DNA of 64,000 nucleotides, taken from assembly GCF_045037415.1 (NCBI RefSeq), contig NZ_CP173440.1; one strand, written 5' to 3'. The notes under the pieces were generated by a model, which ran no database searches, was not told where the DNA came from, and saw only the letters and a list, made by a program, of their open reading frames with translations. A program made the position numbers and the translations under genes. Shown piece by piece: positions 9,141 through 57,565 of this stretch (position 1 is its first letter; each line of letters begins with the position of its first letter). The stretch comes from Escherichia coli. Lineage in GTDB: Bacteria > Pseudomonadota > Gammaproteobacteria > Enterobacterales > Enterobacteriaceae.

Positions 9141-9639
9141 TGTACTCTGCAACCCCGGTGTTTGTAACATTCTTAACATCACTGATTAAACTAATATCTA
9201 CAGAATGTGCCAGTGTTGTTAGCTCGGTAAAGTTAATTTTTTCGTAATAACCATCACTGATTAAGTTTAATAAATTAAAGTCCAGGGCAGGTGGTGGGCA
9301 AATGCTTCCAGAAGTGTAAAGATACTCAAGCCCACGCGCATCAAATATGCCGTGAGGGGCACCCTCTGATAGTTTTCCACCTGAATATAACTCAACCCAT
9401 ATCCTGAGTCGGTAATCCAGAGTGAATTCACCTATCTCAATCCAGAAATGTGGATATAACTCAAAATACGTTTTGGGGTTTTTAACTACCCCGCACATTC
9501 GTTGATGAGAAATGCCTGCATGATTTAGAGCACTGCTTATCATTAATGTATGACCATCGCACTCAACGGGTGCATTCTCAATAGCCTGTAAGAGATTGTT
9601 TAACTTCACAAGACAATCGGGCATAAGGATATTGGCCAT
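9130..9639 (-). CDS. hypothetical protein (gene 2 of operon)
   Basis: ORF, 8-bp gap to the upstream gene. Confidence 0.35.
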   Translation of the reverse strand: MANILMPDCLVKLNNLLQAIENAPVECDGHTLMISSALNHAGISHQRMCGVVKNPKTYFELYPHFWIEIGEFTLDYRLRIWVELYSGGKLSEGAPHGIFDARGLEYLYTSGSICPPPALDFNLLNLISDGYYEKINFTELTTLAHSVDISLISDVKNVTNTGVAEYNDN

Positions 9640-9647
9640 ATAAATAC

Positions 9648-10061
9648 CTATTCCGGAATTTCTGAGAGGAATTCATTAAAGAGATTATCATCGTACAGTG
9701 GGTATAATTGCTTCATCATACCAAAACCGGACATAGCTGCACTTCGCAAGTCGGGATAAAAAGTAGGCTTAGTGATAAGATCGCATTCATTCTTCAGCAC
9801 ACCTTCGAAGCAGCCGTAATCTTCCCCAAACTCCTGAACTATCATCCAACGGCCATCCTTGCATTCAACTACCATAATAGCAGACTTGGGGTAGTCGCCA
9901 GCTGGGGTCAACCAATCAAAATGGTAGTGGGTGATAGTTTGATAACTCTTATGGACATTCATAGCATTAACCCTAATGCAAGACTTACAACGTGAGAGGT
10001 TAGTGTCTGATAAAGCACTGTATATATATGGGTCTTCCCTTGTTGTGGTGGCTGAAGGCAT
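9648..10061 (-). CDS. hypothetical protein (gene 1 of operon); 5' end runs into the ISL3 inverted repeat
   Basis: The first ~14 codons (…EDPYIYSAL…) are encoded by the 23-bp terminal inverted repeat of the adjacent ISL3 element, so the native 5' end is probably disrupted or replaced. Confidence 0.3.
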   Translation of the reverse strand: MPSATTTREDPYIYSALSDTNLSRCKSCIRVNAMNVHKSYQTITHYHFDWLTPAGDYPKSAIMVVECKDGRWMIVQEFGEDYGCFEGVLKNECDLITKPTFYPDLRSAAMSGFGMMKQLYPLYDDNLFNEFLSEIPE

Positions 10062-23878: not shown

Positions 23879-24301
23879 TTATTTCTTTCGGTACTGAATC
23901 TCAACTTTTTCCTCCTTTGTTTTGGCTTCAATACTTAATTCTGCGGTGGGCCTGAGTAGCAGGCGTTGCAGACCGATAGGTTCGCCTGTATCCCGGCAGA
24001 AGCCATATTCTCCTTTTTCAAGCCGCATAAGCGCTGCATCATATTTCGGCAACAGGCGGCTTTCTCTGTCTATCTGTCTGAACAGCAGACGTAACTGCTC
24101 TTCACGAATGGCGATGTCACCTTCGTCACCCGTTTCTGGATTATCCTGCAGTTGTTGCTTCATCTGGTCTATATGATCAAGCACCTCCTGCCTTTCGTGG
24201 CGGATAAGCCGCCGGAAGTAGTCCTGTTGCACAGGATTCATGTAATCTTCTGGCAGCATCGCCAGGATTTTTTCTCGTTCAGCGCGGGTAGGTTTAGTCA
24301 T
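23879..24301 (-). CDS. dksA2: DksA-like protein lacking the Cys4 zinc finger (DksA2-like)
   Basis: DksA/TraR C-terminal region is present, but only one of the four zinc-finger cysteines remains (GFCRDTG…ELSIEAK). Confidence 0.7.
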   Translation of the reverse strand: MTKPTRAEREKILAMLPEDYMNPVQQDYFRRLIRHERQEVLDHIDQMKQQLQDNPETGDEGDIAIREEQLRLLFRQIDRESRLLPKYDAALMRLEKGEYGFCRDTGEPIGLQRLLLRPTAELSIEAKTKEEKVEIQYRKK

Positions 24302-24329
24302 GTCCTGTACCGATAAAATTGCGTAATGA

Positions 24330-24348
24330 AACGTTATAACATAACATT
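24330..24348. promoter_or_regulatory. Zur-box-like operator upstream of the dksA2-like operon
   Basis: AACGTTATAACATAACATT (reverse complement AATGTTATGTTATAACGTT), about 29 bp upstream of the start codon. Confidence 0.55.
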
Positions 24349-24371
24349 AACTGCCGCTGCAAAATAACCTG

Positions 24372-25571
24372 TTAAGCCAGCCGGGCCACTTTCGTGGGCC
24401 AGGGATCGTGGAAAATCCCCCCCTGCTGCCACCAGAGAATTTCCTCTTCAGTGAGTAAACACTGGCGCAATGCGAGGGCAAAATCGTCAATTTCGCCGCT
24501 CTCGCCAATAACAGTCAGGCGGCAGCGCCGGTCACCAAATCTGCCAGGCATTTTTGCCAGTTGCTGACGGATAGCTGCGCGTTCTTCCTTTGTCAATGAA
24601 TTATCAGTGTGAGTCAGGACCCCGGCTTTCCAGTAGCTTATGAATTCGAGATTGATGCTCCCTGCTGCCTGGTTCCACAATAATGCCAGGTCATCCCTTC
24701 CCGGTAGCCAGAAAAACCCCTTGCTGCGGTAAACGCCTGCGCCCATGAAGCGATGGCAGGTATCCCACAGCCGCTGCGGATGAAATGGACGGTCATCCTC
24801 AATGACCCTCCACGAAATATCGTATTTTTTATCGGTTTCATCCGGCAAAACTGCGTCAATGGCATCCTGAAGCTCATCGATAAGTAACGCCACCCGATGA
24901 AAATCGTAATCCGGCATGGAAAGCAATTCATCCAGCTGTAAATTTCCCCAGGGCACGGCCATAATTGCAACCTGGGGATTAAGGGGATGTATGGCTCTGG
25001 CTACCTCAGTAACCACATAGAAGGGTAACCGGTCGTTTTTGGTTAATAAGAGCTTATTACAGAACATAATCTGTTCTGCCAGCAGGCTTTCCACTCCCCG
25101 GGTTCCTTTATTGAGGTGCTCCTGGAAAACCGGAATAAGCTTCTTTCCACCGTCGTAGTCATCATTAAGCATGACCGTATCAACAAGAGACAAAAATGCT
25201 TTGAGACTTACCTGGGTATGTTCTCGCAGATAGCGGACCAGGGGAAGAGGATGGCTGCTACCTGAGGTTTCCAGTAAAATAAAATCCGCAGACCGTTTTT
25301 CGAGCAGGTTTTTCAGCGCGGAATCCAGCTTCTGGATCCCGCTTCTGCTGCTGATACTGTCTGCTGAAATACTCACAAAATTGTTACTGGCTGCATCAAC
25401 GATTTCTGTGTTGGCTATCAGGACGCCATCCACATCAAGTTCACTCATGTCATTAACGATGACGGATACAGTCATTCGCCGTTTGTGTGCCTGTGTAAGA
25501 AGGTTTTTTAGCAGAGTAGTTTTCCCTGCCCCCAGAAAACCATTAAGGATAATGAGCGGTGTTCTTTTCAT
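24372..25571 (-). CDS. COG0523 (CobW/ZigA/YeiR-like) GTPase paralog with SxSA in place of the CxCC motif
   Basis: P-loop [11 protein letters not shown]. Where family members have GCICC this protein has VSISADS. Start set at MKRTPL. Confidence 0.8.
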   Translation of the reverse strand: MKRTPLIILNGFLGAGKTTLLKNLLTQAHKRRMTVSVIVNDMSELDVDGVLIANTEIVDAASNNFVSISADSISSRSGIQKLDSALKNLLEKRSADFILLETSGSSHPLPLVRYLREHTQVSLKAFLSLVDTVMLNDDYDGGKKLIPVFQEHLNKGTRGVESLLAEQIMFCNKLLLTKNDRLPFYVVTEVARAIHPLNPQVAIMAVPWGNLQLDELLSMPDYDFHRVALLIDELQDAIDAVLPDETDKKYDISWRVIEDDRPFHPQRLWDTCHRFMGAGVYRSKGFFWLPGRDDLALLWNQAAGSINLEFISYWKAGVLTHTDNSLTKEERAAIRQQLAKMPGRFGDRRCRLTVIGESGEIDDFALALRQCLLTEEEILWWQQGGIFHDPWPTKVARLA

Positions 25572-25668
25572 AGCATCCAGCCTTATGCCGCTAAACGTTA
25601 ATGCAATCAAGTTGCAATAATACCGGCTTCCTGCCAAAATTCAAATGACATGACTCGGAGGGGGAAAT

Positions 25669-26121
25669 ATGACAACACCAGTAGCCAAAACGTATGACTG
25701 GAAGCAAACGTTGCGCACACATGGTTTGCGGGCAACGCCATCCACCCTTGCTACACTGCAGTGCCTTGAACATGCCAGCCAGGCCATGAGCCATGACGAT
25801 TTAACTCAGCAACTGGGCGAGCAGGCTCCCGATCGTGTGACCCTTTACCGAATACTGGAACGGCTAATGCAGGTCAGTATTGTCCAGCGTTATACCGACT
25901 CGGCAAGAACTCAGCGTTTCGCTCTGACCCAACGGGCTGCCGTAGGACTTTTTGAATGCGATAACTGCCATCATGTTATTCCTATTGAGCAGGATCCAGC
26001 CCTGGAAGCGGCCATTGAATTGGTAAAATCACATCTCACTGGACATGGTATGACCGAACGGGAAATTACCCTTTCCAGTCATGGTATCTGTCCGGACTGT
26101 AATCGTACTATCACCAAATAA
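25669..26121 (+). CDS. zur: Fur-family metalloregulator, probable Zur
   Basis: CDNCHH…CPDC motifs of the Fur family; divergent from a COG0523 gene and co-directional with the CysRS paralog. Confidence 0.7.
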   Translation: MTTPVAKTYDWKQTLRTHGLRATPSTLATLQCLEHASQAMSHDDLTQQLGEQAPDRVTLYRILERLMQVSIVQRYTDSARTQRFALTQRAAVGLFECDNCHHVIPIEQDPALEAAIELVKSHLTGHGMTEREITLSSHGICPDCNRTITK

Positions 26122-26202
26122 TTTTTTTCTTATTCCGGACGACTGTTAATTAGCGCCAGGCGTGTTCGTGTGCTGCTATCTAAAAATAATGAGGTAAACG
26201 TA

Positions 26203-27585
26203 ATGATTAAACTAACAAACACGCTTGGTATGCAAAAGGAGCTATTAGTTCCGGTTAAAGAGAGCAAAATCGGCATGTATGTATGCGGCGTGACGGTTTA
26301 TGACCTTTGCCATCTTGGGCACGCCAGAACCTTTGTAGCTTTTGATATGATTGTCCGCTATCTGCGTTTTCGCGGATACGATGTGACTTTCGTGCGTAAC
26401 ATTACTGATATAGATGATAAAATTATTCAGCGCGCCCGTGATACGGGAGAGGACTGGCGCAGCCTGACAGAGCGGATGGTGCATGAAATGCACATTGATT
26501 TTGCAAAGTTAGGCATCCTGCCGCCAAACATCGAACCTCGTCCCACAGAGCACATCCCACAAATCATCAGTATGATCGAACGACTTCTGCATCGACAATT
26601 TGCTTACATTGCAGAGAATGGTGACGTCATGTTCTCCACTGCATCGGCAAAAGGCTATGGAAAGCTTTCGGGACAGGATATTACCATGCTTCGTGCCGGG
26701 ACCCGCATCGAAGTGAATGAGTATAAACGCGATCCGCTGGATTTTGTTCTCTGGAAGCGGGCAAAACCCGGCGAGCCCGTCTGGCCATCACCCTGGGGTG
26801 AAGGGAGACCTGGCTGGCATATTGAATGTTCCGCAATGAACTGCCATTACCTTGGTACCCATTTCGACATTCATGGCGGTGGTTCTGACCTGATATTTCC
26901 CCATCATGAAAATGAGATTGCCCAATCCACCTCCGCCAATGATGGCCCTTACGTAAATTACTGGCTTCACACCGGCATGGTGACGGTGAATAAAGAGAAG
27001 ATGTCGAAATCGCTGAATAACTTTTTTACCCTGCGCGATATTCTGAATCGGTTCGATGCCCAGAGTGTGCGCTTCTTCCTGCTAAGCGCACATTATCGTA
27101 AGCCGCTGAATTATAGCGAGGAGAATATTCACCTCGCGCGCGCCTCGCTGACACGGCTCTACACCGCATGCCAGTTCGCTGACGGGTCTCGATCTGAACA
27201 GCACGATGCATGGCGGGCCAGATTCTGTGAGGCAATGGATGATGATTTCAATACACCCCAGGCGCTTGCCATTTTATTTGAACTGACAAGAGAGATTAAC
27301 AGGCTTTGCGGAACGAATGATGATGAAGCCGCAGCACTTGCCACCACGCTGAAAGACCTGGGGAATGTGCTGGGTTTGCTTGAACAATCAGCGGATGCCT
27401 TTTTGAAAAACCGCAGTGATCTTCATCCTGCAGAACTGCAACTTATTGAAAAGTTAATTCACCAACGCAGTGAGGCACGACGTATGGGCAAGTGGGACAA
27501 GGCCGATCGTTTAAGAAATGAATTAGCGGAGCAAGGCATTGATCTTGAAGATGTCGGCGAAAATACCTCATGGCGTATCCGATAA
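26203..27585 (+). CDS. cysS: cysteinyl-tRNA synthetase paralog
   Basis: Full-length class I CysRS similarity (GMYVCG…HLGH, KMSKS). Zinc-ligand positions are conserved ([25 protein letters not shown]). Confidence 0.85.
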
Positions 27586-27620
27586 GTTGTCCCTCTGGAT
27601 GTAAAAAATTTCAATATCAA

Positions 27621-27639
27621 TTGTTATGTTATAACGTAA
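27621..27639. promoter_or_regulatory. Zur-box-like operator
   Basis: TTGTTATGTTATAACGTAA, 17 bp upstream of the flavoprotein start codon. Confidence 0.55.
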
Positions 27640-27655
27640 TGCAAAGGGTAATTTT

Positions 27656-28786
27656 ATGAACCAACCACGCGAAGTCGTTATTGTCGGTGCGGGTCCGGCC
27701 GGGGTGGGTATGGCGGCGCTTCTTCGTCGTAGTGCCATACAGGATATCCTGGTCGTTGACAGTCACGAAGTAGGTGCCTCCTTTATGCGCTGGCCGGAAG
27801 AAACCCGTTTTATTACTCCTTCTTTTTTTTCCAATCCGTTTGGACAACCAGACCTGAACTCTGTGACCCCTGACAGTTCATTGGCGCTTTTCTGCGGTGA
27901 AGAACATCCTGGGGGGAAAACTTATGCCAGTTACCTTAAGGCCGTACTGGATGAGTATCAGATACCCGTCATGGCTCCCGCCAGGATTGCAAAGGTTGCG
28001 TTGCTCAGTTCCGGTAATTTTATACTGATAACAGAAGCAGGAGAGAAGCTGGAAACACGCTCTTTAATATGGGCTACAGGCGAATTCCAGTTCCCAGACC
28101 GGCAGATTTTTCCTGGAGCAGATATTTGTTGCCATTACGGTGATGTGACCAGCTGGAAGGATTTCAGGAAAGGTGAATACATTGTTATAGGCGGCTATGA
28201 AAGCGCGGTGGATGCCGCTGTAAACCTGCTGGAAAATGGCTCATCGGTAAAAATGTTAACCCGCTCAGCCCCTTGGTCAACTAACCACATCAGCGATCCC
28301 AGTCTATCGCTTTCCCCTTATACCCGTGAGCGTTTGAACAGAGTGATGAATCACCGTCTTTTCGAAATTTATGAAGATGCGGATGTCTGTGAAGTAATCA
28401 GAATGCCCGGCCCGGGAAGTTCGTACAAAGTCCATACCACAAACGGACGCGCCTGGGCTACTGACGAGGTGCCTGTGCTTGCTACCGGCTTCCAGTGTGG
28501 CGGAGGAGCAAGGCAACTGGCTGCTTTTTTTGAATGGAATGATGATGGCTATCCGGTCTTAACGGACGAAGACTGCTCAACCCTTTTTCCTGGTTTGTAC
28601 CTTGTCGGCCCTCATGTGCGGCATGCCGGTAATATTTATTGCTTTATCTATAAGTTCCGTCAGCGCTTTCCCGTCGTGGCAGAAAGTATCACGCGTCATC
28701 TGGGCCTGTCCTCTGAAGGAGTACGGGACTGGTGGGTTCTGCCTTCAGAGCCTGACTGCTGTGCCGATGAGGACTGTGCGTGCTGA
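27656..28786 (+). CDS. FAD/NAD(P)-binding flavoprotein (flavin-monooxygenase or thioredoxin-reductase-like) with Cys-rich C-terminus
   Basis: VVIVGAGPAGVG FAD-binding fold, second GG…AVDAA dinucleotide motif, LATGFQ motif, C-terminal CCADEDCAC. Confidence 0.6.
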   Translation: MNQPREVVIVGAGPAGVGMAALLRRSAIQDILVVDSHEVGASFMRWPEETRFITPSFFSNPFGQPDLNSVTPDSSLALFCGEEHPGGKTYASYLKAVLDEYQIPVMAPARIAKVALLSSGNFILITEAGEKLETRSLIWATGEFQFPDRQIFPGADICCHYGDVTSWKDFRKGEYIVIGGYESAVDAAVNLLENGSSVKMLTRSAPWSTNHISDPSLSLSPYTRERLNRVMNHRLFEIYEDADVCEVIRMPGPGSSYKVHTTNGRAWATDEVPVLATGFQCGGGARQLAAFFEWNDDGYPVLTDEDCSTLFPGLYLVGPHVRHAGNIYCFIYKFRQRFPVVAESITRHLGLSSEGVRDWWVLPSEPDCCADEDCAC

Positions 28787-30447
28787 GGTCCGTGTTTATG
28801 CAATCATTCGTTTTAATGGGATTAGAAAGTGCAGGAAAATCTACCCTGTTTAATATCCTGACGGAAAGTGCTGCCAGTGATGAGCGTAATTTCAGGGGAT
28901 CGACCGTTGTATGTCGGGAAGGTCTCATTAATGATGCAGGGATCTGCCTGGTTGATACGCCAGGCATACGTTTTCAGAGCGACAGTGAAACCACAAAACT
29001 CGCCCTTGATGCGCTAAATCAGCATGATGGCATTCTGGTGGTTCTGCGGGCCACGCACGCTCAGCAGGAGTGGCAAACGCTCTGTCACCTCATACCGCCA
29101 CAGGCAAAACACGTTGTTATACTCCTGACCTTTGCTGATAAGATCAGAAAGGGCCTTCTGGAAGTGACTGAATACCTGAGTGAAACATCAGGTGCGCCGG
29201 TACTGGCAGTCAATGCCCGGGAAGCTGGCAGCAATGTTCGCCAGGGAATAGTGCAGTTGCTGTTGCAGGATAAACCTGCACCCTCCGCTGTCTCTTTACC
29301 CCGTCAAAAGATACCGGTAATTAATCTGCTGGCTGAATTTCCTCAACAAACGATATTTGAACATCGTTGGTGTGGAAAAGTTGCTGCAATAGTATGCCTT
29401 TTCCTGCTGTTTGCCGTTCCGGTATGGGGGGCATGGCTGCTGTCAGATTTTATTCAGCCTGTCATTGACAGTGCGGTTATTCAGCCGCTTAAGAATATAA
29501 CGACGAGCTGGCCCGACGTTCTGAAGACACTATTTGTCGGCAATTACGGTCTTTTTAGTCTGGGACTTTATTCGTTTGTATGGGCATTTCCTGTGGTGGT
29601 ACTGATAGGGTTGTCTCTTTCGCTGACTGACGACAGTGGACTTAAGGAAAGAATTACAGCGACGCTGGATCCCTGGTTGAGAAAACTCGGCCTCAGCGGT
29701 CAGGACCTTATTCCTGTATTAAGCGGTTTCGGCTGTAATGTCGTGGCGGTTTTTCAGAGCCGTTCGTGTTCGCGATGCACCCGGCATGCTTGTATAAGTA
29801 TGATTAGCTTTGGGTCCGCTTGCAGCTATCAGACGGGGGCGACGCTTTCTCTTTTTAATGCCGCCCATCAACCATGGCTCTTTATCCCCTATCTCAGTCT
29901 GCTGTTTTTCACAGGCGCAATACATACGCGCCTCTGGAACGGGTCGTTGAAGCCTGGCCAAAACCAGCGTCTGACAGAGATCACCTGGCTACAATGGCCA
30001 CGCTGGCGAAATGTGACATGGATGCTGAAAAATATCCTCCGTCAGTTCATTACGCAAGCCATGCCGTTATTCCTGATTATCTGCATTGTTGCGGGGATGC
30101 TTGATTACGCAGGGATCACTCGCTGGCTGAGTGAAACGACGGCACCTTTACTTCATCTTTTTAAACTGCCAGCAGAACTGATGCCCGGGATCATTTTTTC
30201 ACTGCTAAGGAAAGATGGTTTGATGGTGCTCAATCAGGATGGCGGCAGCTTAATACAGTCTCTCAGCACATCTCAGTTACTGCTACTTGTCTGGCTCGCC
30301 TCTACGTTGATGGCCTGCCTTGTCACGGTATTTACCATCGCCCGGGAAATAAACTGGCGGTTTGCAGCAGCAGTGGCGGGAAAACAGGTATTAAGTTCTC
30401 TGGTGGTGGCTCTGGTGATATCCCAGTTATTTATTCATGAGGCATAA
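28780..30447 (+). CDS. FeoB-family transporter with a divergent G-domain
   Basis: G1 GLESAGKSTLFN and G3 DTPG; membrane domain with LSGFGCNVVAV gate-like motif; shorter than canonical FeoB. Confidence 0.6.
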   Translation: MLRSVFMQSFVLMGLESAGKSTLFNILTESAASDERNFRGSTVVCREGLINDAGICLVDTPGIRFQSDSETTKLALDALNQHDGILVVLRATHAQQEWQTLCHLIPPQAKHVVILLTFADKIRKGLLEVTEYLSETSGAPVLAVNAREAGSNVRQGIVQLLLQDKPAPSAVSLPRQKIPVINLLAEFPQQTIFEHRWCGKVAAIVCLFLLFAVPVWGAWLLSDFIQPVIDSAVIQPLKNITTSWPDVLKTLFVGNYGLFSLGLYSFVWAFPVVVLIGLSLSLTDDSGLKERITATLDPWLRKLGLSGQDLIPVLSGFGCNVVAVFQSRSCSRCTRHACISMISFGSACSYQTGATLSLFNAAHQPWLFIPYLSLLFFTGAIHTRLWNGSLKPGQNQRLTEITWLQWPRWRNVTWMLKNILRQFITQAMPLFLIICIVAGMLDYAGITRWLSETTAPLLHLFKLPAELMPGIIFSLLRKDGLMVLNQDGGSLIQSLSTSQLLLLVWLASTLMACLVTVFTIAREINWRFAAAVAGKQVLSSLVVALVISQLFIHEA

Positions 30448-30449
30448 GT

Positions 30450-30656
30450 ATGATCCCCAAGACTTACCAGCAATGGTACCGGTGCATCACAGAAGAATGT
30501 GGAATTCCCTTGACGCAGGCATTTATTGCATCCCGTCTGGCAGTCCTTGAGTCCCAAGATCATCAGGAAACCAGACGTTTTGTCTCGCTATATGGGCAAC
30601 AACATCTGAATAGTGTTGTACAGTGGTTCAAAAAAGCTGGGGAAGAATTGTTGTAA
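30450..30656 (+). CDS. small hypothetical protein, translationally coupled to the FeoB-like gene
   Basis: 68-aa ORF starting 3 nt after the FeoB-like stop. Confidence 0.35.
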   Translation: MIPKTYQQWYRCITEECGIPLTQAFIASRLAVLESQDHQETRRFVSLYGQQHLNSVVQWFKKAGEELL

Positions 30657-30681
30657 ATCTGCCCCCTTTTCGCTTTCATAC

Positions 30682-30710
30682 GAAGGCACCCGACAAATGC
30701 GGGTGCCTTC
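30682..30710. terminator. perfect 11-bp stem hairpin between convergent genes
   Basis: GAAGGCACCCG-acaaatg-CGGGTGCCTTC. A near-identical hairpin recurs at 61555-61585. Confidence 0.4.
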
Positions 30711-30713
30711 GAT

Positions 30714-31937
30714 TCATTCTTCGAACCAGGGCTCAACAGGATCGGAATAATGCCGCCACTTTTGAGGCCCTTCTGCCATTTCTGCATCCGTTAACAGGGC
30801 GGAATCCAGTCTGTTGCGCAGTTCTGATTCATTCATATCCATTCCAATAAAAACGAGTTCCTGACGGGCATCACCAATGCCATCTATCCAGTTAGACATG
30901 ATGAACTTCAGTGACTCAGCATCCTCTGGCCAACGTCCTTTCGGCACACTAGCCCACCACATGCCCCCCAGCCCCTGGCGCGCAATGCCACCTGCCTGCG
31001 ACCATGAACCTGCGAATTCCGGACGGCTGGCCAGCCAGAAGTAACCTTTTGATCTGACGACTCCATCCAGCTCATTTTCCATCACCTGCCAGAAACGGGT
31101 CGGATGAAAAGGCCGGCGGGCGCGAAAGACAAAGCTGGTGATCCCATATTCTTCTGTCTCCGGCGTATGTTCGCCCCGGAGTTCTTTAAGCCAGCCGGGT
31201 GCCTGAGCGGCCTGCTCGAAATCAAACAGCCCGGTATTAAGTATGTTGCCCAGCGGAACCTGTCCAAACTGTGAAACAACGATTCTGGCCCGTGGATTAA
31301 GCGAACGTAAAATCGCCATCAGTTTTTCTTTTTGCGCTTCACTGATAAGGTCAACTTTATTAAGGACCAGCACATCACAGAATTCAATCTGATCGATCAG
31401 CAAGTCAACAACGCTCCTTTCATCACCTTCACCTAACGATTCTCCGCGTGACTGAATGCTGTCTTCCGAACCGTAGTCTTTCAGAAAATTGTACGCATCC
31501 ACCACAGTGACCATGGTGTCAAGGCGGGCCACCGTCGAAAGGCTTTCACCGTCATCGCCCGCAAAGGTAAATGTTTCAGCAACAGGCAGAGGCTCAGATA
31601 TACCGGTGGACTCAATGACAAGCTGATCAAAACGCCCTTCTTTTGCCAGACGATTAACTTCGAGAAGAAGATCTTCGCGCAATGTGCAGCAAATGCAACC
31701 GTTGCTCATTTCTACCAGTTTTTCATCAGTCCGGGAGAGTTCTGCACCACCTTCCCTCACAAGGGCAGCATCAATATTCACCTCAGACATATCATTAACA
31801 ATGACAGCAACACGACGGCCTTCCCGGTTGTTCAGAATATGGTTAAGCAGTGTCGTTTTCCCTGCTCCCAAAAATCCCGAAAGTACGGTAACCGGCAGGC
31901 GTTTATCGCCATGAAAATTTGCACTGACTTCGGACAT
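30714..31937 (-). CDS. COG0523 GTPase with canonical CxCC motif
   Basis: P-loop [11 protein letters not shown] and GCICCTL metal motif, followed by a CobW_C-like C-terminal domain. Confidence 0.8.
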
Positions 31938-31973
31938 TACCTTACATCTCCTCAGATATTCGTTGTGTTCGGA

Positions 31974-32381
31974 TTAACCAGGATCGTTGAGCACGGTTAG
32001 CTCATCGCCTTTAATGGCGTTGTAAAAACAACTCCGCCGACCTGTGTGGCAGGCTCCACCTTTTTGATCCACTAGCAGTAGCACCGCATCTCCGTCACAA
32101 TCCAGACGGATATCATGTACTTGCTGAACGCAGCCGGAGGTCTCACCTTTTCGCCAAAGGCATGATCGGGATCGCGACCAGTAACAGGCTCTGCCAGTCA
32201 ATAAGGTTTCATCAAGAGCCTGTTGATTCATCCAGGCAAGCATCAACACCTCTCCAGTGTCATATTGCTGTGCAATCGCAGCGATCAAACCATGAGAATC
32301 CCAGGGTATTGACGGCAGGATATCCTCAAGCTGAAACACTGCTCCTGCATGGGCTTTTTCCAGTAACAGAAACATTGGCAC
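31974..32381 (-). CDS. hisI: phosphoribosyl-AMP cyclohydrolase paralog (HisI-like)
   Basis: 135 aa with HisI-like core (…WSRSRS…[28 protein letters not shown]); Cys/His ligand positions appear retained. Confidence 0.65.
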
Positions 32382-32393
32382 CCCACCTTTTTG

Positions 32394-32411
32394 ATGTTAC
32401 GTTATAACATA
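32394..32411. promoter_or_regulatory. Zur-box-like operator
   Basis: ATGTTACGTTATAACATA, 13 bp upstream of the hisI-like start, in the divergent region with a Fur-family regulator gene. Confidence 0.55.
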
Positions 32412-32519
32412 TCAAACATAATTGCCAGTTATCACGATTTCACAGGCACTGTACTTCTTGGGTAACATCTGACCGGAAAAAGAAACAAAGCAAATGTGAT
32501 AGAGGCAGCAGGAGGCAAG

Positions 32520-33020
32520 ATGAATAACAAACTACATTCTGAATTGATTAAGAAAGCTATGTTCCCGGATCTAGGCTGTTCAGAATTTAGGGAACTGACT
32601 GCCCGTAAGGCGATGCGAATTACTCCGATGCGGATGATGGTGTATCACTTCATCAGGTGTGCTGAAGACAAAGGTATCAGTGCATACCAAATCCTTGACC
32701 AGTTAAAATCATATAACCCAAATGCAAAACCAACTACTGTTTATCGTACTCTGGATTATCTACAACAGGCTGGAGTCATTGTAAAAATAGAAAGCTGTAG
32801 CAAGTTTGTAAAAAAGAATAGCTTTCCCCATGAAGGATTAACACTTTTTATGATTTGTTCAAACTGCGGTACAATCATTCAGCATACAGACAGCAAAATA
32901 CAATATTACGTTGAGGATAAATCACATGAATATGGGTATATTATGCAAAGAAAGGACATAGAAATCAGTATAATTTGTCCCGGTTGTCAGGCTAATGAAA
33001 AAATGGCGCAATCTGGGTGA
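32520..33020 (+). CDS. second Fur-family regulator (low-GC, divergent from the hisI-COG0523 operon)
   Basis: Winged-helix region and CSNCG…CPGC structural-zinc-type motifs. Start set at MNNKLH. Confidence 0.6.
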   Translation: MNNKLHSELIKKAMFPDLGCSEFRELTARKAMRITPMRMMVYHFIRCAEDKGISAYQILDQLKSYNPNAKPTTVYRTLDYLQQAGVIVKIESCSKFVKKNSFPHEGLTLFMICSNCGTIIQHTDSKIQYYVEDKSHEYGYIMQRKDIEISIICPGCQANEKMAQSG

Positions 33021-33395
33021 ATTGTGCTCAATAAGCATACGATTAGTAACTTCCCATATTATATGTGAAACAGAAAAAATATTATTACGGTCGATAAAAT
33101 TAAGAATAATATAAATTAGCACTCCCACAAATATTGATTGAAATAATGCTGAATTATTTTCAATAAATAATACAAATAATGCAATTTGAAAAATACCTAC
33201 CTATCATGTTTAGCAAAGCATGACTATTTAGGATCATAAAAACAAAAAAGGAAATTTATAATTTATTTATTTTAACCGTTTTATTTGCACTCCATGTAAA
33301 TGCATGCTTAAATTCCCATGCATTTCCTAAACAATATTACTAATGACCTTTATATACAATAATACAGAAATCCTAAATAACTGATCCTAATACCG

Positions 33396-34390
33396 CTACA
33401 GTTTAGCCAACCCATGTTTTCCACCGGGGAATGGGCTGACGGTATTCATAAAGTGACGAACCTTTTTCAACAGTTTCCACATTGAGTGGCACTGATGATT
33501 TCGGGTTATTGTCTCGTGAAGCGCCTGCCACAACCGTTCGACATGATTGACCCGCGGCGAGTAAACCGGCTGATAAATTACCCTGAACTTCGGGTTTGCT
33601 TTCAGCCAACGCAACGTTTCACGGCTTTTGTGGATGATGTGGTTATCGACAATGAGCGTAATCGTTTTTGCCCGCCGGTATGTCGCCTTCAGATGTTTTA
33701 AGTCTGATAAATAAGGAAGAACCTTTACTGTTTCCACTAACGTAGCTGGCTTTTCCTGTATCGCTGTGCAGCGCACCGGCAAGATAGTACTTTTCATTCT
33801 GGCCCAGCGTGACTACGCGCTTTTGCTGCCCGCGCAGATGCCAGTCAGCACCAATTTTGGGATTGAGGTGAATATCCACTTCATCTTCGTAAAATACGGG
33901 GTTTTCCGCACTGCATTCGCCAGTGCTTCATGGATAGCGACCATTTTTTCTTCTTTGTGTGGGGCACGGATACGCAGTGTCGGCGCTGCTCTCCGCCATA
34001 CCAGTCCGGCAGCAGGTAACCATCGCCGGATGGTTGAAGCATGTAGCGGACAACCGATAACATCACGGACTTTTATCGCCAGCAGTTCGGTGCTCCAGCG
34101 GGAACGCTGATAACTGAAATCGCCGGGAGAATGCTTAACAAGCTCAAGCAGCAATGCGCAAATATGTTCGAACGGCCAGCGCCTCCCACGTCCTGACGGC
34201 AATGATTTCAGGCCTTCAGTACCAGACAGCGTGAACCAGTTAATCTAGCGACCAATCGATGAGCGGGCACAGCAGAGCGTTCTGGCAACATGACTGACGG
34301 TGTCACCATGATGCAGCATCAGCATGGCGGTGAGCCGCCGGGCGAGGTTTTTGTCCTTTGTTTTATTGATATTTTTATCCATCAGGCGTC
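33396..34390 (-). pseudogene. IS630-family transposase, broken into three or more frames
   Basis: ORFs 33396..33797 (DDE C-terminus, …YQPVYSPRVNHVERLW…) and 33813..34202 (N-terminal part), plus an HTH piece near 34250-34390. Confidence 0.55.
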
Positions 34391-36533: not shown

Positions 36534-36553
36534 TAAATGTTATGTTATCACAT
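36534..36553. promoter_or_regulatory. Zur-box-like operator (one mismatch to the window consensus)
   Basis: AAATGTTATGTTATCACATT, about 25 bp upstream of the probable ATPase start. Confidence 0.45.
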
Positions 36554-36577: not shown

Positions 36578-37387
36578 ATGAACAACAATCTTCCTTATCC
36601 AATACCTGTGCTTGATGTTAAAAGCGTCAGCATTTCTACGGGCCATTCTGCTCTGGTTAGCGATGTCAGCTTTCGGCTCCAACAAGGCGAGCGGGTCTGT
36701 ATTATCGGCTCATCAGGGTCAGGTAAGTCTCTGACGGCAAAAGCCATTATAGGTACATTGTCTGCCGGGCTGTTATTACAAGGAAGCATTCGTATAAACG
36801 GTGCGGATGTCGTTGGCCTTCATCCCACCCGGCGCCCTCAGCATGCGCTGGTATCCGCCATCTTTCAGGACTCTTCCACCGCGCTGAACCCGCTGATGCC
36901 GGTGGGGCGACAGCTTGCTCTGGCGTTGAAAACAGGTGATAACGCGATGCTGGGCTCTTTGCTGGATGCGCTACAGCTCAGCGATATCCCTCAATTGCTC
37001 TCCCGCTACCCGGCAGAGCTTTCCGGTGGGCAGCGTCAGCGGATTTGCATCGCGCTGGCGTTGCTGGGGAATAATCGCCTGCTGGTTGCTGATGAACCGA
37101 CGACGGCACTGGATGTGATTAGCCAGCAGCAGGTTTTGCAGATATTAGTTCAGGGTTCCACGATGAGAGCTCCGCCTGCGTTGCTCTTCATCACACATGA
37201 TATTGCCGTTGCCACACAGTTGTGCCAGCGAGGTATCGTGGTGGAAAAAGGCAGGATTGTGGAGTCAGGCACAATGGACCAGCTCCTGAACGAGCCGGAG
37301 CATCCTTACACCCGCAAATTGGTACGGGCCGCGCGAGCCGCTGAACAGACGTTGTTAACACACACCCGTGAGGTGCTCGCCGGATGA
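36578..37387 (+). CDS. ABC transporter ATP-binding protein (Nik/Dpp/Opp-type, D-like)
   Basis: Walker A GSSGSGKS, signature LSGGQRQR, Walker B LLVADEPT. Confidence 0.8.
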   Translation: MNNNLPYPIPVLDVKSVSISTGHSALVSDVSFRLQQGERVCIIGSSGSGKSLTAKAIIGTLSAGLLLQGSIRINGADVVGLHPTRRPQHALVSAIFQDSSTALNPLMPVGRQLALALKTGDNAMLGSLLDALQLSDIPQLLSRYPAELSGGQRQRICIALALLGNNRLLVADEPTTALDVISQQQVLQILVQGSTMRAPPALLFITHDIAVATQLCQRGIVVEKGRIVESGTMDQLLNEPEHPYTRKLVRAARAAEQTLLTHTREVLAG

Positions 37388-38217
37388 GTATTCCCCTGCA
37401 GATGGCATCCGACTCCTTCATTCAGGTCGACAGGATTTCCCGCTACCGGAGTCACCCCGGACTCCCTTGGCAGAAGACCCTGCCAGTGAATGCCATTCTT
37501 AAAGATTTTTCGCTCACACTGCGTCAGCATGAGCGTGTTGGCCTGTTAGGATGTTCGGGCTGTGGAAAATCGACGTTACTGAAAGCTATCTTGGCCCTCG
37601 ACCCGGTAGATGACGGTGAGGTGTATTGTGATGGAAAGGTGGTCAGGCCCGGCTCTGCCCGAATATTGCGCTGGTATCGCCGCAGGGTTCAGTACCTTCC
37701 TCAGGAACCCGCCAGTACGTTGCCGCCGTCAATGCGTGTCAGAGAGATTCTCAACGAGCCGCTAAGACATTTAGGCTGCAACCGTGATGCGTCACCTAAT
37801 CTTGCCGCCGCGCTTGAACAGGTCGAACTCAGCGCAAAAGTTCTCGATCAGCGTGCAGGCTCGCTTTCAGGGGGGCAGGCTCAGCGCGTTGCGCTGGCAA
37901 GAGCGCTGATCATACAGCCCGATTTTTTGCTGGCCGATGAGCCGGTCAGCGGGCTGGATCTTCCCCTGCGTGAGCAAATCAAATTGCTACTTTTGCGTAT
38001 AGCAGAAGAAAACCGCATGGGGCTGCTGATTGTCTCTCATGACATTTCTATGCTGGCAGGGTTGTGCGACAGAACGCTGGTCATGGTGGCTGGAAAAATC
38101 ATTGAAGATCGCCCGACGTTTGAAATGTTGCATTTACCTCATCATCCGCATACGCGTCAGCTTCTGGACGCGGTACCGGCTCTTGTAACTCATGCCCCGT
38201 CGCTGGCACGTGGCTGA
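37384..38217 (+). CDS. ABC transporter ATP-binding protein (F-like)
   Basis: GCSGCGKST, LSGGQAQR, LLADEP; ATGA overlap with the upstream gene. Confidence 0.8.
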   Translation: MSIPLQMASDSFIQVDRISRYRSHPGLPWQKTLPVNAILKDFSLTLRQHERVGLLGCSGCGKSTLLKAILALDPVDDGEVYCDGKVVRPGSARILRWYRRRVQYLPQEPASTLPPSMRVREILNEPLRHLGCNRDASPNLAAALEQVELSAKVLDQRAGSLSGGQAQRVALARALIIQPDFLLADEPVSGLDLPLREQIKLLLLRIAEENRMGLLIVSHDISMLAGLCDRTLVMVAGKIIEDRPTFEMLHLPHHPHTRQLLDAVPALVTHAPSLARG

Positions 38218-38243
38218 ATACACTTTTAACGAATAATCTCATT

Positions 38244-39488
38244 ATGACTGAATTGATTTCAGGGAAGAAAGCGAACACCTCCCCTTCATTGCTGCTTGTC
38301 AGCCAGTTTATTTTTAATACCGGTTTTTATGCGGTAGTGCCTTTTCTCGCTATTTTTCTGCGCGATGACATGCTGTTGTCCGGTGCCGCGATTGGCCTGG
38401 TGCTCGGTCTCAGGACCTTCTCGCAGCAGGGTATGTTTCTGGTTGGAGGGGCACTGACTGACAGGTTTGGCGGACGTGCCATCATTCTGTGCGGCTGCGT
38501 GGTCCGAATCAGTGGCTACCTGCTGCTCGCCATCAGCGCCTCGTTATGGGGCGTTATTCTGGGAGCCTGCCTGACAGGGATTGGCGGTGCGCTCTTCTCG
38601 CCTGCAATCGAGTCGCTGATGGCTCAGGCGGGGACGCAAAGTGAAAGGGAAGGCAAGCGCAGCCGTTCAGAATGGTTCGCGTTGTTCTCTGTTTGTGGTG
38701 AGCTGGGTTCAGTCATCGGTCCTTTGCTGGGAGCATTGCTGACAGGGTACAGCTTTCAGAGTGTGGCCCTTGGCGGGGCAGGCGTCTTCTTGTTTGCGCT
38801 GATTATGCTCTATTTCATGCTACCGACAGGCACCAGCCATCATGGCACGCTTAAAATTTCCCCTTGGTGGACGGCATTTCACCAGCGCCGCTTTGTTGCC
38901 TTTATCGTTGCTTACAGCGCGTATTTATTCAGCTATAACCAGCTCTATCTGGCGTTACCCGTTGAACTACGCCGCTCCGGGGGAAGTGAGGCCGAGCTCG
39001 GCCCGCTGTTTATGCTGGCCTCAGTCATGATCATTTTCCTGCAATTGCCTCTGGCACGGTTTGCCCGAAAACGCGGCGCATCACAGATTTTGCCTGTGGG
39101 ATTTTTGCTGCTGGCACTGTCATTCTTTAGCGTCGCTCTGTTCGCCGGTACCACAGCGCCAGACACTCTGTGGCGGCTGCTTCCCGCGGTTTCACTAGTC
39201 ACGCTGCTGACGCTTGGCCAGATGCTTATTGTGCCTGTGGGCATGGACATGATCCCTGTTTTTGCCCGGGATAAAAATCTTGGGGCGCACTACGGAGCAC
39301 TCTCCTCCATGGGCGGCGCCACCGTGCTGGCCGGCAATTTTGCCCTCGGCGGGCTGCTGGATCGCGCACTCATCCCTTCTTCGCAGGCTTTTGTGCCATG
39401 GCTACTTATGGGCTGCATTCCGTTATGCAGCGCGGTTGCCATGCTGTTTATTTTACGATCGTTTAAAACGACCTCTGGAAATCAATAA
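38244..39488 (+). CDS. MFS transporter embedded in the ABC operon
   Basis: About 12 predicted TM helices; MFS-like signature GGALTDRFGGR. Confidence 0.65.
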   Translation: MTELISGKKANTSPSLLLVSQFIFNTGFYAVVPFLAIFLRDDMLLSGAAIGLVLGLRTFSQQGMFLVGGALTDRFGGRAIILCGCVVRISGYLLLAISASLWGVILGACLTGIGGALFSPAIESLMAQAGTQSEREGKRSRSEWFALFSVCGELGSVIGPLLGALLTGYSFQSVALGGAGVFLFALIMLYFMLPTGTSHHGTLKISPWWTAFHQRRFVAFIVAYSAYLFSYNQLYLALPVELRRSGGSEAELGPLFMLASVMIIFLQLPLARFARKRGASQILPVGFLLLALSFFSVALFAGTTAPDTLWRLLPAVSLVTLLTLGQMLIVPVGMDMIPVFARDKNLGAHYGALSSMGGATVLAGNFALGGLLDRALIPSSQAFVPWLLMGCIPLCSAVAMLFILRSFKTTSGNQ

Positions 39489-39498
39489 GGACAGATAA

Positions 39499-41025
39499 AT
39501 GAATACGGGTAAATCATTATGGCCTGTTTATGGGCTCTTGTCAGCCACCTTATTACTGACTGGCTGCTTTAATGAACCGCAGGACGAATCGGTCAGCGCC
39601 AGCGAGGGCAGAATTAAAGTGGCGCACCTTCTTCCACCGCGTTCCGGCCTGACGCCGCTCAGTGATGATGCATTTAAATTATCGCGCTGGAGCACGGCTG
39701 AAACCCTGGTCGTACTCAACAGCGCCAGTGATGCACAGCCTGCGCTGGCAACCAGCTGGGAGCAAATCAATGACACAACCTGGCGTTTTGAATTGCGCCC
39801 GAACGTCAAGTTTCATGACAATACCGATCTAACCGCGCAGTCGGTGGTTAACGCGCTGAGCGTTGCCGCTAGCGCCAAACCAAAGCCCCGTATTCTGGAT
39901 GGCATAACGCTCACAGCCAAAGTAGACGGCGATAATGCCGTACTGATCACGACTGAAAAACGCGATCCTCTTCTGCCTCAGCGTCTTTCCAGCCCTCAGC
40001 TGGCCATTTTGTCGCTGAATGCTTACAAAGAAAATGGCGTGGTGAACCCAGTTAATGCAGGAACCGGGCCATTCATTCTGCGCAGCGTGAATGGCACCAG
40101 CAGTGCCGCGCTCGATCGCTTTGATGGCTACTGGGGCGAGAAGGCGAAAGCTAGCGGTATTGACGCAAGCTTTGTTCCGGACGGGGCCGCGCGCGCAGCC
40201 GCATTACGTACTGGCACGGCGGATATCATTGAGGCAATTCCTGTGTCTCAGGCCCCGCTTCTGGATCAATCACTGGTTCATGAAGTCCCGATGCCGAGAA
40301 CCAATACGCTTTATCTCAATACGGCGCAGGGCGTGATGAAAGATCCAGCTATGCGAGCCGCAGTCCGTGACGTGATTAATCGTCAGCAGATTGTTGATAA
40401 TGTCTATGAGAAACGTGCCGACGTCGCGCAGGGGCTTCTGGGGCCAGCCTTGCCATGGGCCGCACCACTGCGCAAACCGGTGACCAACCCCGTTGCAGCG
40501 GGAAAACCAGACGGGGCCACAATCACTCTGGCAACGTTCAGCGATCGTGCGGAATTGCCTGAAGTCGCGGTCTATCTTGCACAGCAGCTCATTGCCGCCG
40601 GGTTTACCGTGAAACAAGTGGTCCGCGAGTATTCGCAGATTGAAGCTGATGCGCTGGCCGGAAAGTTTGATGCCTTTATTCTGTCGCGTGCAACCGTGCT
40701 GGATTCCGGTGACCCGGTTGCCTACATGTACAGCGATTTCGCCTGCGAAGGGTCGTTCAATATATCCCAGCTGTGCCGCCCGGAAATTGATGCAGCGCTG
40801 AAAAAAGCCCGTGAAACGCCAGCGGGTGAAACCCGACGTCAGGCCATTATGGACGCTGAAAACATGATCCTTGCCAGTGATGCTGCGATCCCAATACTAC
40901 ATGAGCGCGTCATTCAGGGAGAAAGTGCGGTAGTGAAAAATGCGCTCCGTGACCCTCGCGAGCGCACGCTCATCGACAGCCAGACCCAATTAGTCGCTGG
41001 CGAACATACTACTGCTGCGCAGTAA
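39499..41025 (+). CDS. family-5 (NikA/OppA/CntA-like) substrate-binding lipoprotein
   Basis: Lipoprotein signal (LLLTGC); size and composition of family-5 solute-binding proteins. Confidence 0.7.
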   Translation: MNTGKSLWPVYGLLSATLLLTGCFNEPQDESVSASEGRIKVAHLLPPRSGLTPLSDDAFKLSRWSTAETLVVLNSASDAQPALATSWEQINDTTWRFELRPNVKFHDNTDLTAQSVVNALSVAASAKPKPRILDGITLTAKVDGDNAVLITTEKRDPLLPQRLSSPQLAILSLNAYKENGVVNPVNAGTGPFILRSVNGTSSAALDRFDGYWGEKAKASGIDASFVPDGAARAAALRTGTADIIEAIPVSQAPLLDQSLVHEVPMPRTNTLYLNTAQGVMKDPAMRAAVRDVINRQQIVDNVYEKRADVAQGLLGPALPWAAPLRKPVTNPVAAGKPDGATITLATFSDRAELPEVAVYLAQQLIAAGFTVKQVVREYSQIEADALAGKFDAFILSRATVLDSGDPVAYMYSDFACEGSFNISQLCRPEIDAALKKARETPAGETRRQAIMDAENMILASDAAIPILHERVIQGESAVVKNALRDPRERTLIDSQTQLVAGEHTTAAQ

Positions 41026-41043
41026 AACAGGGGTTATTGATCA

Positions 41044-51843: not shown

Positions 51844-52376
51844 AGAAACAGTAACTTTGATCCATCAATATTCATCCAAAAATATTTTATAAGCATTAAA
51901 AAAAAAAACAACAGAGAATCATTTCTCTTGAAAGTCGTTGGTTACAATTTTTAATGAATAAAAATTCAATCAATCACGGTAAATAGTCATTTTTTTTGTC
52001 TTTGCGTGTTTGCAATTAATTGATCTTTTTTTTTAACCCGCCCCCCTTTATTTTGTCAGTTTGCTTAATAATTCACGATTAAAGATGTGTGGGGAGGGGC
52101 GAGTTTAGGACTTATTTTAAAATCCTTATCAAATAAATACTTTCGCAAAAAACAATTCGCTTAGTAATACTGTCTGTTTCTATAATAACCATGGTAATTA
52201 GATTTCTGAAAAATATGTTCAGATTACCACTAGTGTAACAGTTGGTGCTTGGGAGTTATTTGGCGATTGATCCGACCACATGATCCAGGCTAAATACCCT
52301 CAAAGTAAATTAATATATTGTTCTCCTTGATATCCGGCCCATTTTTTGATTTAATTTCAAATGATAACTGTATAAG

Positions 52377-53039: not shown

Positions 53040-53399
53040 CTATTTATCATTTTTTCCTGGATTTATCTTTTTTAAAAACACCTTGTGAACTGATCCCATA
53101 GTTTATATTAAGCGACTAACAGGGCTTGGGTTCGGTCCTCTACCGGACTCAGGCCTTTTTGTTTTATTCTTTCATGGTTGTAATAGTGGATGTACTCATC
53201 TATAGCCATGCGCAACTAGCTGATATTCTTATGTTCCTTCAGGTAAAAACATTCAATCTTTAGCGTACCGAAGAAGCTTTCCATTACTGCATTGTCGTGA
53301 CATTTTCTCTTTCTTGACATGCTCTGTTTCAGGCCGCTGCCCTTAAGTCGCTTCTGATAATACGCCATCTGGTAGTGCATCTAATTAGTAGAACATGTA

Positions 53400-57561: not shown

Positions 57562-57565
57562 AAAT

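Follow-up and report, generated by a model that had tools for sequence, protein, structure and literature searches.

We analysed a 64,000-nucleotide (nt) stretch of Escherichia coli DNA (contig NZ_CP173440.1, assembly GCF_045037415.1; hereafter the window), with a focus on an operon of three tightly spaced genes on one strand, which encode a flavoprotein, a FeoB-like permease and a 68-amino-acid (68-aa) protein. The obtained results point to an operon that is repressed by Zur and induced by zinc starvation, and whose products would form a module for the translocation of a thiophilic divalent metal, likeliest Zn2+, across the membrane. We give this reading, which was built from sequence comparison, a probability of roughly 40%. 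The new element is a FeoB-superfamily permease that appears to have been rewired to the zinc regulon together with a Cys-tailed flavoprotein; what was already known is a remark from 2009 that such genes co-localise (Haas et al., 2009).

The first-pass annotation of this DNA had placed a Zur-type box ahead of the operon, and a candidate operator of the gammaproteobacterial type is indeed present (Table 1). It lies within the 70-nt gap upstream of the flavoprotein gene, where it overlaps a TATAAC −10-like hexamer. The 15-mer core ends 19 nt ahead of the flavoprotein ATG at 27656, and the distance of 17 bp that had been given hinges on the box end that is chosen. At the level of two mismatches, 10 matches to the Zur core were found in the window against 1.78 expected, a number that was reached in 0 of 100 shuffles. 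No Fur box was detected across the whole window at up to 3 mismatches, and no Rfam element passed the gathering thresholds in 24000-33500.

The conservation of the operator was then observed outside the window. One genome per species was scanned, which gave 80 loci, and the gene neighbourhoods were obtained by tblastn. The gammaproteobacterial box was located directly ahead of the flavoprotein gene in 6/6 Enterobacterales loci and in Stutzerimonas (7/7 gammaproteobacterial loci), and it occupied the same position in all of the box-bearing genera, namely Klebsiella, Superficieibacter, Shimwellia, Pluralibacter, Tatumella, Erwinia and Stutzerimonas. In Pluralibacter, a perfect box precedes a lone three-gene operon among unrelated genes. 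A Firmicute Zur box, TCGTAATNATTACGA, was found with at most 2 mismatches and at most 250 nt upstream in 27 of the 41 Bacillales loci, compared with 3.3% expected from the locus-wide density; in most of the other Bacillales loci, the box stands ahead of a co-directional upstream COG0523 gene. As two independent operator dialects precede the same gene pair, predicted Zur control of the module is the best-supported of our conclusions and is well supported. The Zur control that had been proposed for the window operon is thereby strengthened, since a box is kept upstream of orthologues even where the Zur consensus of the lineage is another one.

The second gene had been described beforehand as a short FeoB-like transporter with a divergent G domain, a description borne out by the domain analysis. 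The protein consists of a G domain (residues 1-156), a linker and a membrane domain with two Gate repeats. In the G domain, GxxxxGKS, T36, DTPG and TFxD are invariant, and the G1-G4 residues are invariant in 54 sequences. The P-loop is divergent, reading GLESAGKS here and GxESxGKS in the family, with an invariant Glu and with the K+-site Asn replaced, and G4 reads TFADK. The translation start produced mechanically for the open reading frame (ORF), GTG 28780, is probably wrong; ATG 28798, which has GAGG 8 nt upstream, is probably the real start because the homologues are 547-550 aa long and share the N-terminus MxxFVLMGLESAGKS. The NCBI/RefSeq start at 28816 (MGLESAGKS...) probably cuts off the first β-strand of the G domain.

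The permease shares with FeoB (TIGR00437, PF02421 + PF07670) the arrangement of an N-terminal small GTPase followed by a polytopic two-Gate membrane domain. Its membrane half is 25% identical to that of E. coli FeoB, and two Cys are common to both proteins, C313 in GFGCN, which aligns with GFGCNV, and C507 in LMAC, whose counterpart is the Cys of the second repeat. Unlike FeoB, it is only 549 aa long compared with ~770 aa (773 in E. coli), lacks the helical S/GDI domain and the K+-site Asn, and has an obligate flavoprotein partner and a Zur box instead of a Fur/FNR site. It further carries additional Cys, of which C324, C332, C342 and C429 are invariant in the alignments, whereas C327, like H376, is conserved in at least 90%. 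The added motif is thus CSxC-x4-C (C324-S-x-C327-x4-C332), followed by C342. In the AlphaFold2 model (mean predicted local distance difference test score, pLDDT, 82.8; predicted template modelling score, pTM, 0.79), C313 and C507 lie at the breaks of discontinuous helices, and a low-confidence linker of ~30 residues (160-190) connects the G domain to the first transmembrane helix where FeoB has its helical domain.

The obtained scores place the protein outside the true FeoB proteins and in a separate clade, as judged from sequence. It scored 118.6 bits against the feoB equivalog model TIGR00437 (cut-off 315.65) and 51 against PRK09554 (cut-off 683). In a profile search of 1.84 billion representatives, full-length family members scored 280-818 bits, compared with at most 185 bits for canonical FeoB. 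A structure search of AFDB50 gave template modelling (TM) scores of 0.8-0.9 for family members and ~0.7 for canonical FeoB at 20-23% identity; in the Protein Data Bank (PDB), no solved full-length FeoB was found for comparison, only NFeoB domains. Membrane-only forms (P0282 and other ~370-aa matches in the representative search) retain all of the conserved Cys and have no G domain, and their existence suggests that the GTPase is an optional accessory in this permease family. A 923-aa candidate, P0301, was considered as fusion proof of physical coupling and rejected as a low-complexity, probably mistranslated extension. A defence-system reading was likewise rejected, as PADLOC gave marginal dynamin-like G-domain matches only.

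The automatic annotation of many members as 'ferrous iron transporter B' would suit an ordinary, iron-regulated FeoB that stands beside an unrelated oxidoreductase and has acquired its operator by chance. This reading already conflicts with the score under the equivalog cut-off, with the discrete clade (members at 280 bits or more, canonical proteins at 185 or less), with the operators of two lineage types conserved upstream, with the zinc context of 63/80 loci described below and with the missing Fur box, and we regard it as scarcely tenable. Queries with E. coli FeoA and FeoC (tblastn, 85 loci) gave no match, although the sensitivity of this search for a distant FeoA is limited, and the FeoA Pfam family was absent from the precomputed neighbour lists. 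The earlier separation of the operon from the classical Fur- or FNR-controlled FeoB systems is in agreement with these results.

The flavoprotein is predicted to be cytoplasmic and to bind flavin adenine dinucleotide (FAD) and a nicotinamide cofactor, NAD(P)H. A FAD/NAD(P) flavoprotein with a Cys-rich tail is what the first-pass annotation had described, and both parts hold: the protein matches Pyr_redox_3 (Table 1) and ends in ...PDCCADEDCAC, that is, in a CC-x4-C-x-C tail. Homologues typically end in ...DLSCCGEDCQC-COOH, so that the tail takes the form (C)C-x3/4-C-x-C, and it was found in 117 of the 120 nearest homologue clusters. Among 72 aligned homologues, C329 (in CFIYKFRQRF), C369, C374 and C376 were invariant, while C368 was present in 83%. 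C329 and the C-terminal (C)C-x3/4-C-x-C appear to set a Cys-tailed 'CzcO-like' subfamily. The nearest solved structure (1e-63) is PDB 3D1C, a 'putative monooxygenase' of Staphylococcus aureus from structural genomics, in which the Cys tail is present at the C-terminal end, ...DDYSCCEVSCTC; to our knowledge, this crystal structure has never been linked to zinc.

The further label 'FMO-like' (flavin-containing monooxygenase) stands at the Pfam family level only. The regular expression for the FMO signature, FxGxxxHxxx[YF], had no match in the flavoprotein, whose motifs are GAGPAG and an NAD(P)H motif, GGYESAVDAA, resembling that of thioredoxin reductase (TrxR). Its top NCBIfam match is YpdA (TIGR04018), at 71.8 bits against a cut-off of 339.9, and the TrxR model TIGR01292 gave 40 bits against 343. 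With YpdA/Bdr and the low-molecular-weight TrxR it has in common the two-Rossmann FAD/NAD(P)H fold and the GGxxSAxDAA NADPH motif; in the motif check, however, it showed neither the Cys in the first glycine motif, GxGxxG, of YpdA nor the CxxC of TrxR, having C329 and the Cys tail instead. A homologue of 48% identity is named 'CzcD-associated flavoprotein CzcO' by JGI. CzcD-CzcO of Bacillus subtilis pairs a zinc transporter with a flavoprotein, and by analogy the window protein would be a CzcO-type (COG2072) Pyr_redox_3 flavoprotein genetically tied to a zinc-family transporter. Here, however, the partner is FeoB-like or ACR3-like and not a cation diffusion facilitator exporter, and the predicted induction is by zinc starvation and not by excess.

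The 80 loci are distributed over Pseudomonadota, Bacillota, Verrucomicrobiota, Chloroflexota, Planctomycetota, Kiritimatiellota, Acidobacteriota, Binatota and one cyanobacterial metagenome-assembled genome, and the AlphaFold Database (AFDB) extends the FeoB-like family to Myxococcota, Actinomycetota and haloarchaea. The pairing that had been put forward for comparative genomics was recovered widely, with the flavoprotein gene adjoining the FeoB-like gene in 71/80 loci; it comes first in 62 and in reversed order in 9, mainly in Verrucomicrobiota. Zinc genes surround the pair, as any one of the markers Zur, ZnuABC, L33, HisI2 and CysRS2 was found in 63/80 loci and a COG0523 gene no more than 3 kb away in 53/80. 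More specifically, a ZigA-type COG0523 gene (at least 45% identity) was located within 1.5 kb of the pair in 34/80 loci, on the same strand in 31. The cysteinyl-tRNA synthetase paralogue cysS2 lies directly upstream of the flavoprotein gene in Erwinia and Halomonas; in Burkholderia pseudomallei, it is found two genes upstream of it. In Chloroflexi and Planctomycetota loci (L015, L019, L024 and L040; about 9514-9971), the gene pair is separated by one for an 89-aa S14 paralogue that appears to be zinc-independent. In L015 and L019, this paralogue is joined by a conserved ORF of 62 aa, and a related ORF of the same length was seen in L040.

The module was also found in S. aureus (locus L099, 7930-11425, on a metagenome contig), where the flavoprotein is PDB 3D1C itself and its gene is followed by an overlapping one for a 448-aa FeoB-like permease and then by one for a 296-aa COG0523 protein. 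Ahead of these genes, at a distance of 51 nt, stands a perfect Zur box, AAATCGTAATTATTACGATTTA. The 448-aa permease keeps the full Cys set and retains a remnant of the G domain that is not functional. The supplement of Haas et al. (2009) gives, as the context of COG0523 'subgroup 14', S. aureus SAOUHSC_02901 with ZnuA, 'TrxB' and 'FeoB', on the basis of co-localisation only. The S. aureus operon is this subgroup 14 context and the same module, differing from the window operon in its permease, which has no functional G domain. A 'Zur-regulated gene cluster on pLVPK' had also been reported by Haas et al. (2009); the pLVPK entries in their table of sites are confined to hisI2-yciC and dksA2-folE2-cam, and the operator ahead of the flavoprotein gene is not among them. 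The main text of a Klebsiella pneumoniae zinc-limitation proteomics paper makes no mention of the module genes.

In B. pseudomallei, Halomonas and Methylophaga (L088 7001-9168, L089 7001-9126 and L090 6552-9117), a Cys-tailed flavoprotein of 47-49% identity has a gene that overlaps one for a ~335-aa SBF/ACR3-like permease, not a FeoB-like one. The Zur-type islands around these loci hold cobW, folE2, cysS2, queD2, thrS2, pyrC2, hisI2 and FUR; in Halomonas a Zur box with 1 mismatch lies ahead of the operon, and in Methylophaga a SufE-like sulfur carrier is encoded by its first gene. The arrangement recalls the ars operons, in which ArsO, of the same broad flavoprotein family, stands beside an ACR3-type permease. 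It differs from them in its Zur/zinc setting, in place of an ArsR/arsenic one, and in its weak model scores: the window flavoprotein reached 46.5 bits against the ArsO model (cut-off 425), and the ACR3-like permease, which has a conserved, Cys-containing SPCTDW motif, reached 70 bits against the acr3 model (cut-off 283). Judged from these versions, the flavoprotein appears to be the constant part of the module and the permease interchangeable.

A constant flavoprotein with exchangeable permeases would also suit a role in thiol or sulfur handling. The permease would then move a low-molecular-weight thiol, a disulfide, a persulfide or a metal-thiolate complex, the flavoprotein would act as an NAD(P)H-dependent disulfide or persulfide reductase, and the pair would support cysteine and thiol-dependent zinc buffering when zinc is scarce. 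The TrxR-like NAD(P)H motif and the top match to YpdA, a bacillithiol-disulfide reductase, agree with such a role, as do the position of cysS2 directly or closely upstream in four lineages and the SufE-like carrier that leads the Methylophaga operon. However, the SufE and cysS2 links may merely mirror the make-up of the islands, the active-site Cys of YpdA is missing and the YpdA score falls far under its cut-off. No conserved thiol-biosynthesis genes lie nearby, and FeoB-type cores are known as cation transporters only. We consider this explanation unlikely.

For the zinc translocation module that we favour, we infer the identity of the substrate, an inward direction of transport, a thiol relay and a reductase role. 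The metal would cross the inner membrane through the FeoB-type core, with C313 (GFGCN) and C507 (LMAC) at the breaks of the discontinuous helices as its ligands, before reaching the C324-S-x-C327-x4-C332/C342 cluster that is specific to the family. At the cytoplasmic face, ligand exchange would transfer it onto the flexible CC-x3/4-C-x-C tail of the flavoprotein, which would hand it to the CxCC site of neighbouring COG0523 GTPases (ZigA), and these would supply the client enzymes. The flavoprotein would draw on NAD(P)H and FAD, probably by way of C329 beside the flavin, so that both its tail and the permease thiols stay reduced; it may also cycle these thiols between a metal-binding form and a disulfide form that releases the metal. 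The N-terminal G domain would gate the permease as in FeoB, and certain lineages, with a COG0523 protein as the sole GTPase encoded alongside, would do without it; the 68-aa protein would be a lineage-restricted accessory subunit.

A Zn2+ relay is favoured by the retention of the FeoB fold and of both core Cys, by the added invariant Cys, by the invariance of the flavoprotein tail across phyla, and by the conserved Cys (SPCTDW) of the alternative ACR3-like partner. COG0523 proteins have a CxCC metal site, and GCICC is visible in the COG0523 sequence of the window. The relay resembles, by analogy only, that of MerT/MerP-MerA, which combines a Cys-lined membrane carrier with an NAD(P)H flavoprotein bearing vicinal Cys on a flexible C-terminal tail. 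In the MerT/MerA relay, the soft metal is handed off by thiol ligand exchange through the C-terminal Cys pair. Unlike that system, the module has no sequence kinship to MerT, its flavoprotein lacks the CxxxxC pair and the NmerA domain of MerA, Zn2+ is not reducible, and the predicted control is by Zur and not by MerR. A doubtful variant of the zinc reading is a redox-driven acquisition of a previously undescribed kind, in which the Cys4 tail and the permease CxxC would cycle, the thiolate capturing Zn2+ from the permease at very high affinity and the disulfide releasing it to COG0523, so that reducing power would pay for uptake and not ATP or an ion gradient. With the flavoprotein as the engine, coupling to unrelated permeases, FeoB-like or ACR3-like, would follow.

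Several points weigh against a Zn2+ relay. Zn2+ has no redox chemistry, and the presence of a flavoprotein can be accounted for only by assuming that it maintains thiols. The known substrates of FeoB are Fe2+ and Mn2+, and the known ACR3/BASS relatives carry metalloid oxyanions or organic anions and not Zn2+, so that the swap to a permease of that type, as read from sequence, counts against the relay. The GTPase appears to be dispensable in staphylococci, the module has no extracytoplasmic binding protein dedicated to it, and helix boundaries and charge did not fix the side of the membrane that the CxxC loop faces. In the full-text literature, no functional study of the flavoprotein/FeoB-like pair was found, the sole prior notice being the supplements of Haas et al. 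(2009). In S. aureus, the loss of AdcABC and Cnt is reported to severely impair zinc acquisition (PMC5666155); as this loss suffices for the defect, the module would not be a sufficient high-affinity importer in that species. The suggestion of a new uptake route for zinc or another divalent metal is therefore upheld in its Zur control and zinc-gene setting and weakened by the ACR3-like partner, the missing staphylococcal GTPase and the Adc/Cnt result. In view of the redox-inert metal, the ACR3 swap, the loss of the GTPase and the S. aureus data, three rivals were retained, namely the thiol-handling role already described, the import of a replacement metal and an outward allocation of zinc.

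A replacement metal (Fe2+, Mn2+ or Co2+) could be imported in zinc starvation for the metal-promiscuous paralogues FolE2, PyrC2, HisI2, Cam and QueD2 encoded nearby; the permease would then be a FeoB variant placed under Zur, with the substrate chemistry of FeoB retained. The preserved FeoB fold and core Cys would fit this, the island in the window is rich in alternative-metal paralogues, and Cupriavidus metallidurans, when starved of zinc, reportedly floods itself with cobalt for the benefit of such paralogues (PMC11340326). The S. aureus Adc/Cnt data are also compatible. Against this, neither FeoA nor a Fur box nor an iron-gene setting was found, and Zn or Cd would match the additional Cys3-4 cluster and the Cys4 tail better than Fe or Mn. 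The close link to ZigA-type chaperones also suits zinc better, and the ACR3-like partner is not a known carrier of Fe, Mn or Co. We find this explanation unlikely. Alternatively, scarce zinc could be passed outwards, from COG0523 via the flavoprotein tail and the permease to essential extracytoplasmic zinc enzymes such as the cell-wall hydrolases and carboxypeptidases of these islands. The island does encode an M14 metallocarboxypeptidase and a DUF1460 protein, a PIG-L deacetylase is present in the B. pseudomallei cluster, the direction of transport is unconstrained by the data, and the Adc/Cnt result would be compatible. The export of zinc in starvation is counter-intuitive, however, the best-studied FeoB proteins are importers and most loci have no envelope enzyme beside the pair, which makes this outward route highly improbable.

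The third gene of the operon had been noted as a translationally coupled 68-aa ORF. It begins 2 nt past the TAA of the FeoB-like gene, with GAGG 8 nt upstream, and in its orthologues the start overlaps the preceding stop, in line with that description. The protein had no relative in Pfam, NCBIfam or PDB and no relationship to FeoC. Its predicted fold consists of four helices (pLDDT 96), and a structure search with the model gave no informative neighbour. It is confined to Enterobacterales and Stutzerimonas and, more distantly, two Akkermansiaceae. The coordinates of the operon and of the features next to it are given in Table 1.

Table 1. Location of the operon, its predicted control elements and adjacent genes in the window.
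Feature	Coordinates	Strand	Details
Candidate Zur operator, gammaproteobacterial type, TGTTATGTTATAACG	27622..27636		2 mismatches to Zur core TGTTATAWTATAACA
Predicted cytoplasmic FAD/NAD(P)H flavoprotein, 376 aa	27656..28786	+	Pfam Pyr_redox_3, E 1.7e-93; 'CzcO'/COG2072-type
FeoB-like GTPase-permease, 549 aa	28798..30447	+	Pfam FeoB_N 3e-13 + 2x Gate (PF07670)
Putative cytoplasmic four-helix accessory protein, 68 aa	30450..30656	+	Invariant W9, I13, C17, R29, T41, G49, W59
Predicted strong intrinsic terminator common to the operon and convergent zigA	30681..30711		12-bp stem, 9 GC pairs, then T-rich tail
ZigA-type COG0523 zinc metallochaperone GTPase, convergent neighbour	30714..31937	-	NF038288 702 bits, cut-off 600
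CysRS paralogue cysS2, directly upstream of the flavoprotein gene	26170..27585	+	TIGR00435 568 bits; NCBI start 26203
Fur-family island repressor, first of two	25669..26121	+	Weak Fur, Zur and PerR model matches; annotated 'transcriptional repressor'
Zur-like island repressor, second of two, divergent from hisI2-zigA	32496..33020	+	NF008646 Zur 84.5 bits, cut-off 167

The window region is 100% identical to large K. pneumoniae plasmids, with matches in 696 PLSDB records. It is a K. pneumoniae hypervirulence plasmid of the pLVPK type with a zinc-starvation island, an assignment made because rmpA, rmpD and peg-344 lie further along the same record, at ~52000-54700 in the window (by identity to NZ_CP072809.1 123862-126393). 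The zinc island thus travels with classical hypervirulent K. pneumoniae loci, and a stray Cas6/CasE gene and a DEAD-box helicase fragment are close by. A chromosomal copy of the operon region was found in K. pneumoniae ATCC 13883 (locus L006).

In the annotated record, the island runs from hemB2, pyrC2, an M14 carboxypeptidase, a ThrRS fragment, DUF1460, a carbonic anhydrase, folE2, dksA2 and COG0523 to a second block with the Fur-like repressor, cysS2 and the three-gene operon; zigA and hisI2 come next, followed by the Zur-like repressor and then by a cluster of ATP-binding cassette (ABC) and major facilitator superfamily (MFS) transporters. The ZigA-type COG0523 protein is a probable functional partner of the operon. 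The island 'threonine-tRNA ligase' (window 19062-20099, minus strand, ~334-345 aa) is a fragment or stand-alone domain and not a full ThrRS paralogue; full-length copies (~670-680 aa) were seen in the B. pseudomallei and Methylophaga islands.

Two distinct Fur-family repressors, of 150 aa and, for the Zur-like one, about 166-174 aa, are encoded on the island besides the chromosomal Zur of the host, and both score under the NCBIfam cut-offs. A Zur box at 32395-32409 lies by the second repressor, a site that is also given in the supplement of Haas et al. (2009) for pLVPK LV196, and no canonical Zur box was found in the intergenic region 25572-25668 upstream of the first. A further Zur box (36538-36552) stands ~26 nt ahead of an operon at 36578-42819 that encodes two ABC ATPases, an MFS transporter, an Opp/Nik-type substrate-binding protein and a fused permease, and that could be a Zur-controlled importer of a metallophore or a peptide-metal complex. 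Overlapping Zur-box matches at 57545-57564 and 60930-60949 flank an ABC transporter (ATPase, substrate-binding protein and FecCD-type permease; ORFs at 58000-60809), which is annotated as an iron ABC transporter and may be zinc-regulated instead.

Hosts use zinc starvation as one of the principal weapons of their nutritional immunity, and bacteria are known to counter it with ABC importers, ZIP and TonB systems, metallophores, COG0523 chaperones and zinc-free paralogues. If the proposed reading is true, a conserved, Zur-controlled membrane component with a redox partner would join these defences. The module is present on a K. pneumoniae hypervirulence plasmid and in S. aureus, with a different permease in B. 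pseudomallei, and it is widespread in environmental phyla. The module may therefore serve as a testable candidate for the membrane step that feeds the COG0523 chaperones, and it would give a functional context to the orphan structure PDB 3D1C. Module proteins are currently found in databases as 'ferrous iron transporter B', 'nucleoside recognition domain-containing protein', 'thioredoxin reductase' or 'NAD(P)/FAD-dependent oxidoreductase', and hundreds of the entries named 'ferrous iron transporter B' or 'thioredoxin reductase' would be corrected. For further family members, a look-up of clusters gave generic names only. It would further provide a starting point for understanding why zinc transporters such as CzcD-CzcO recruit flavoproteins.

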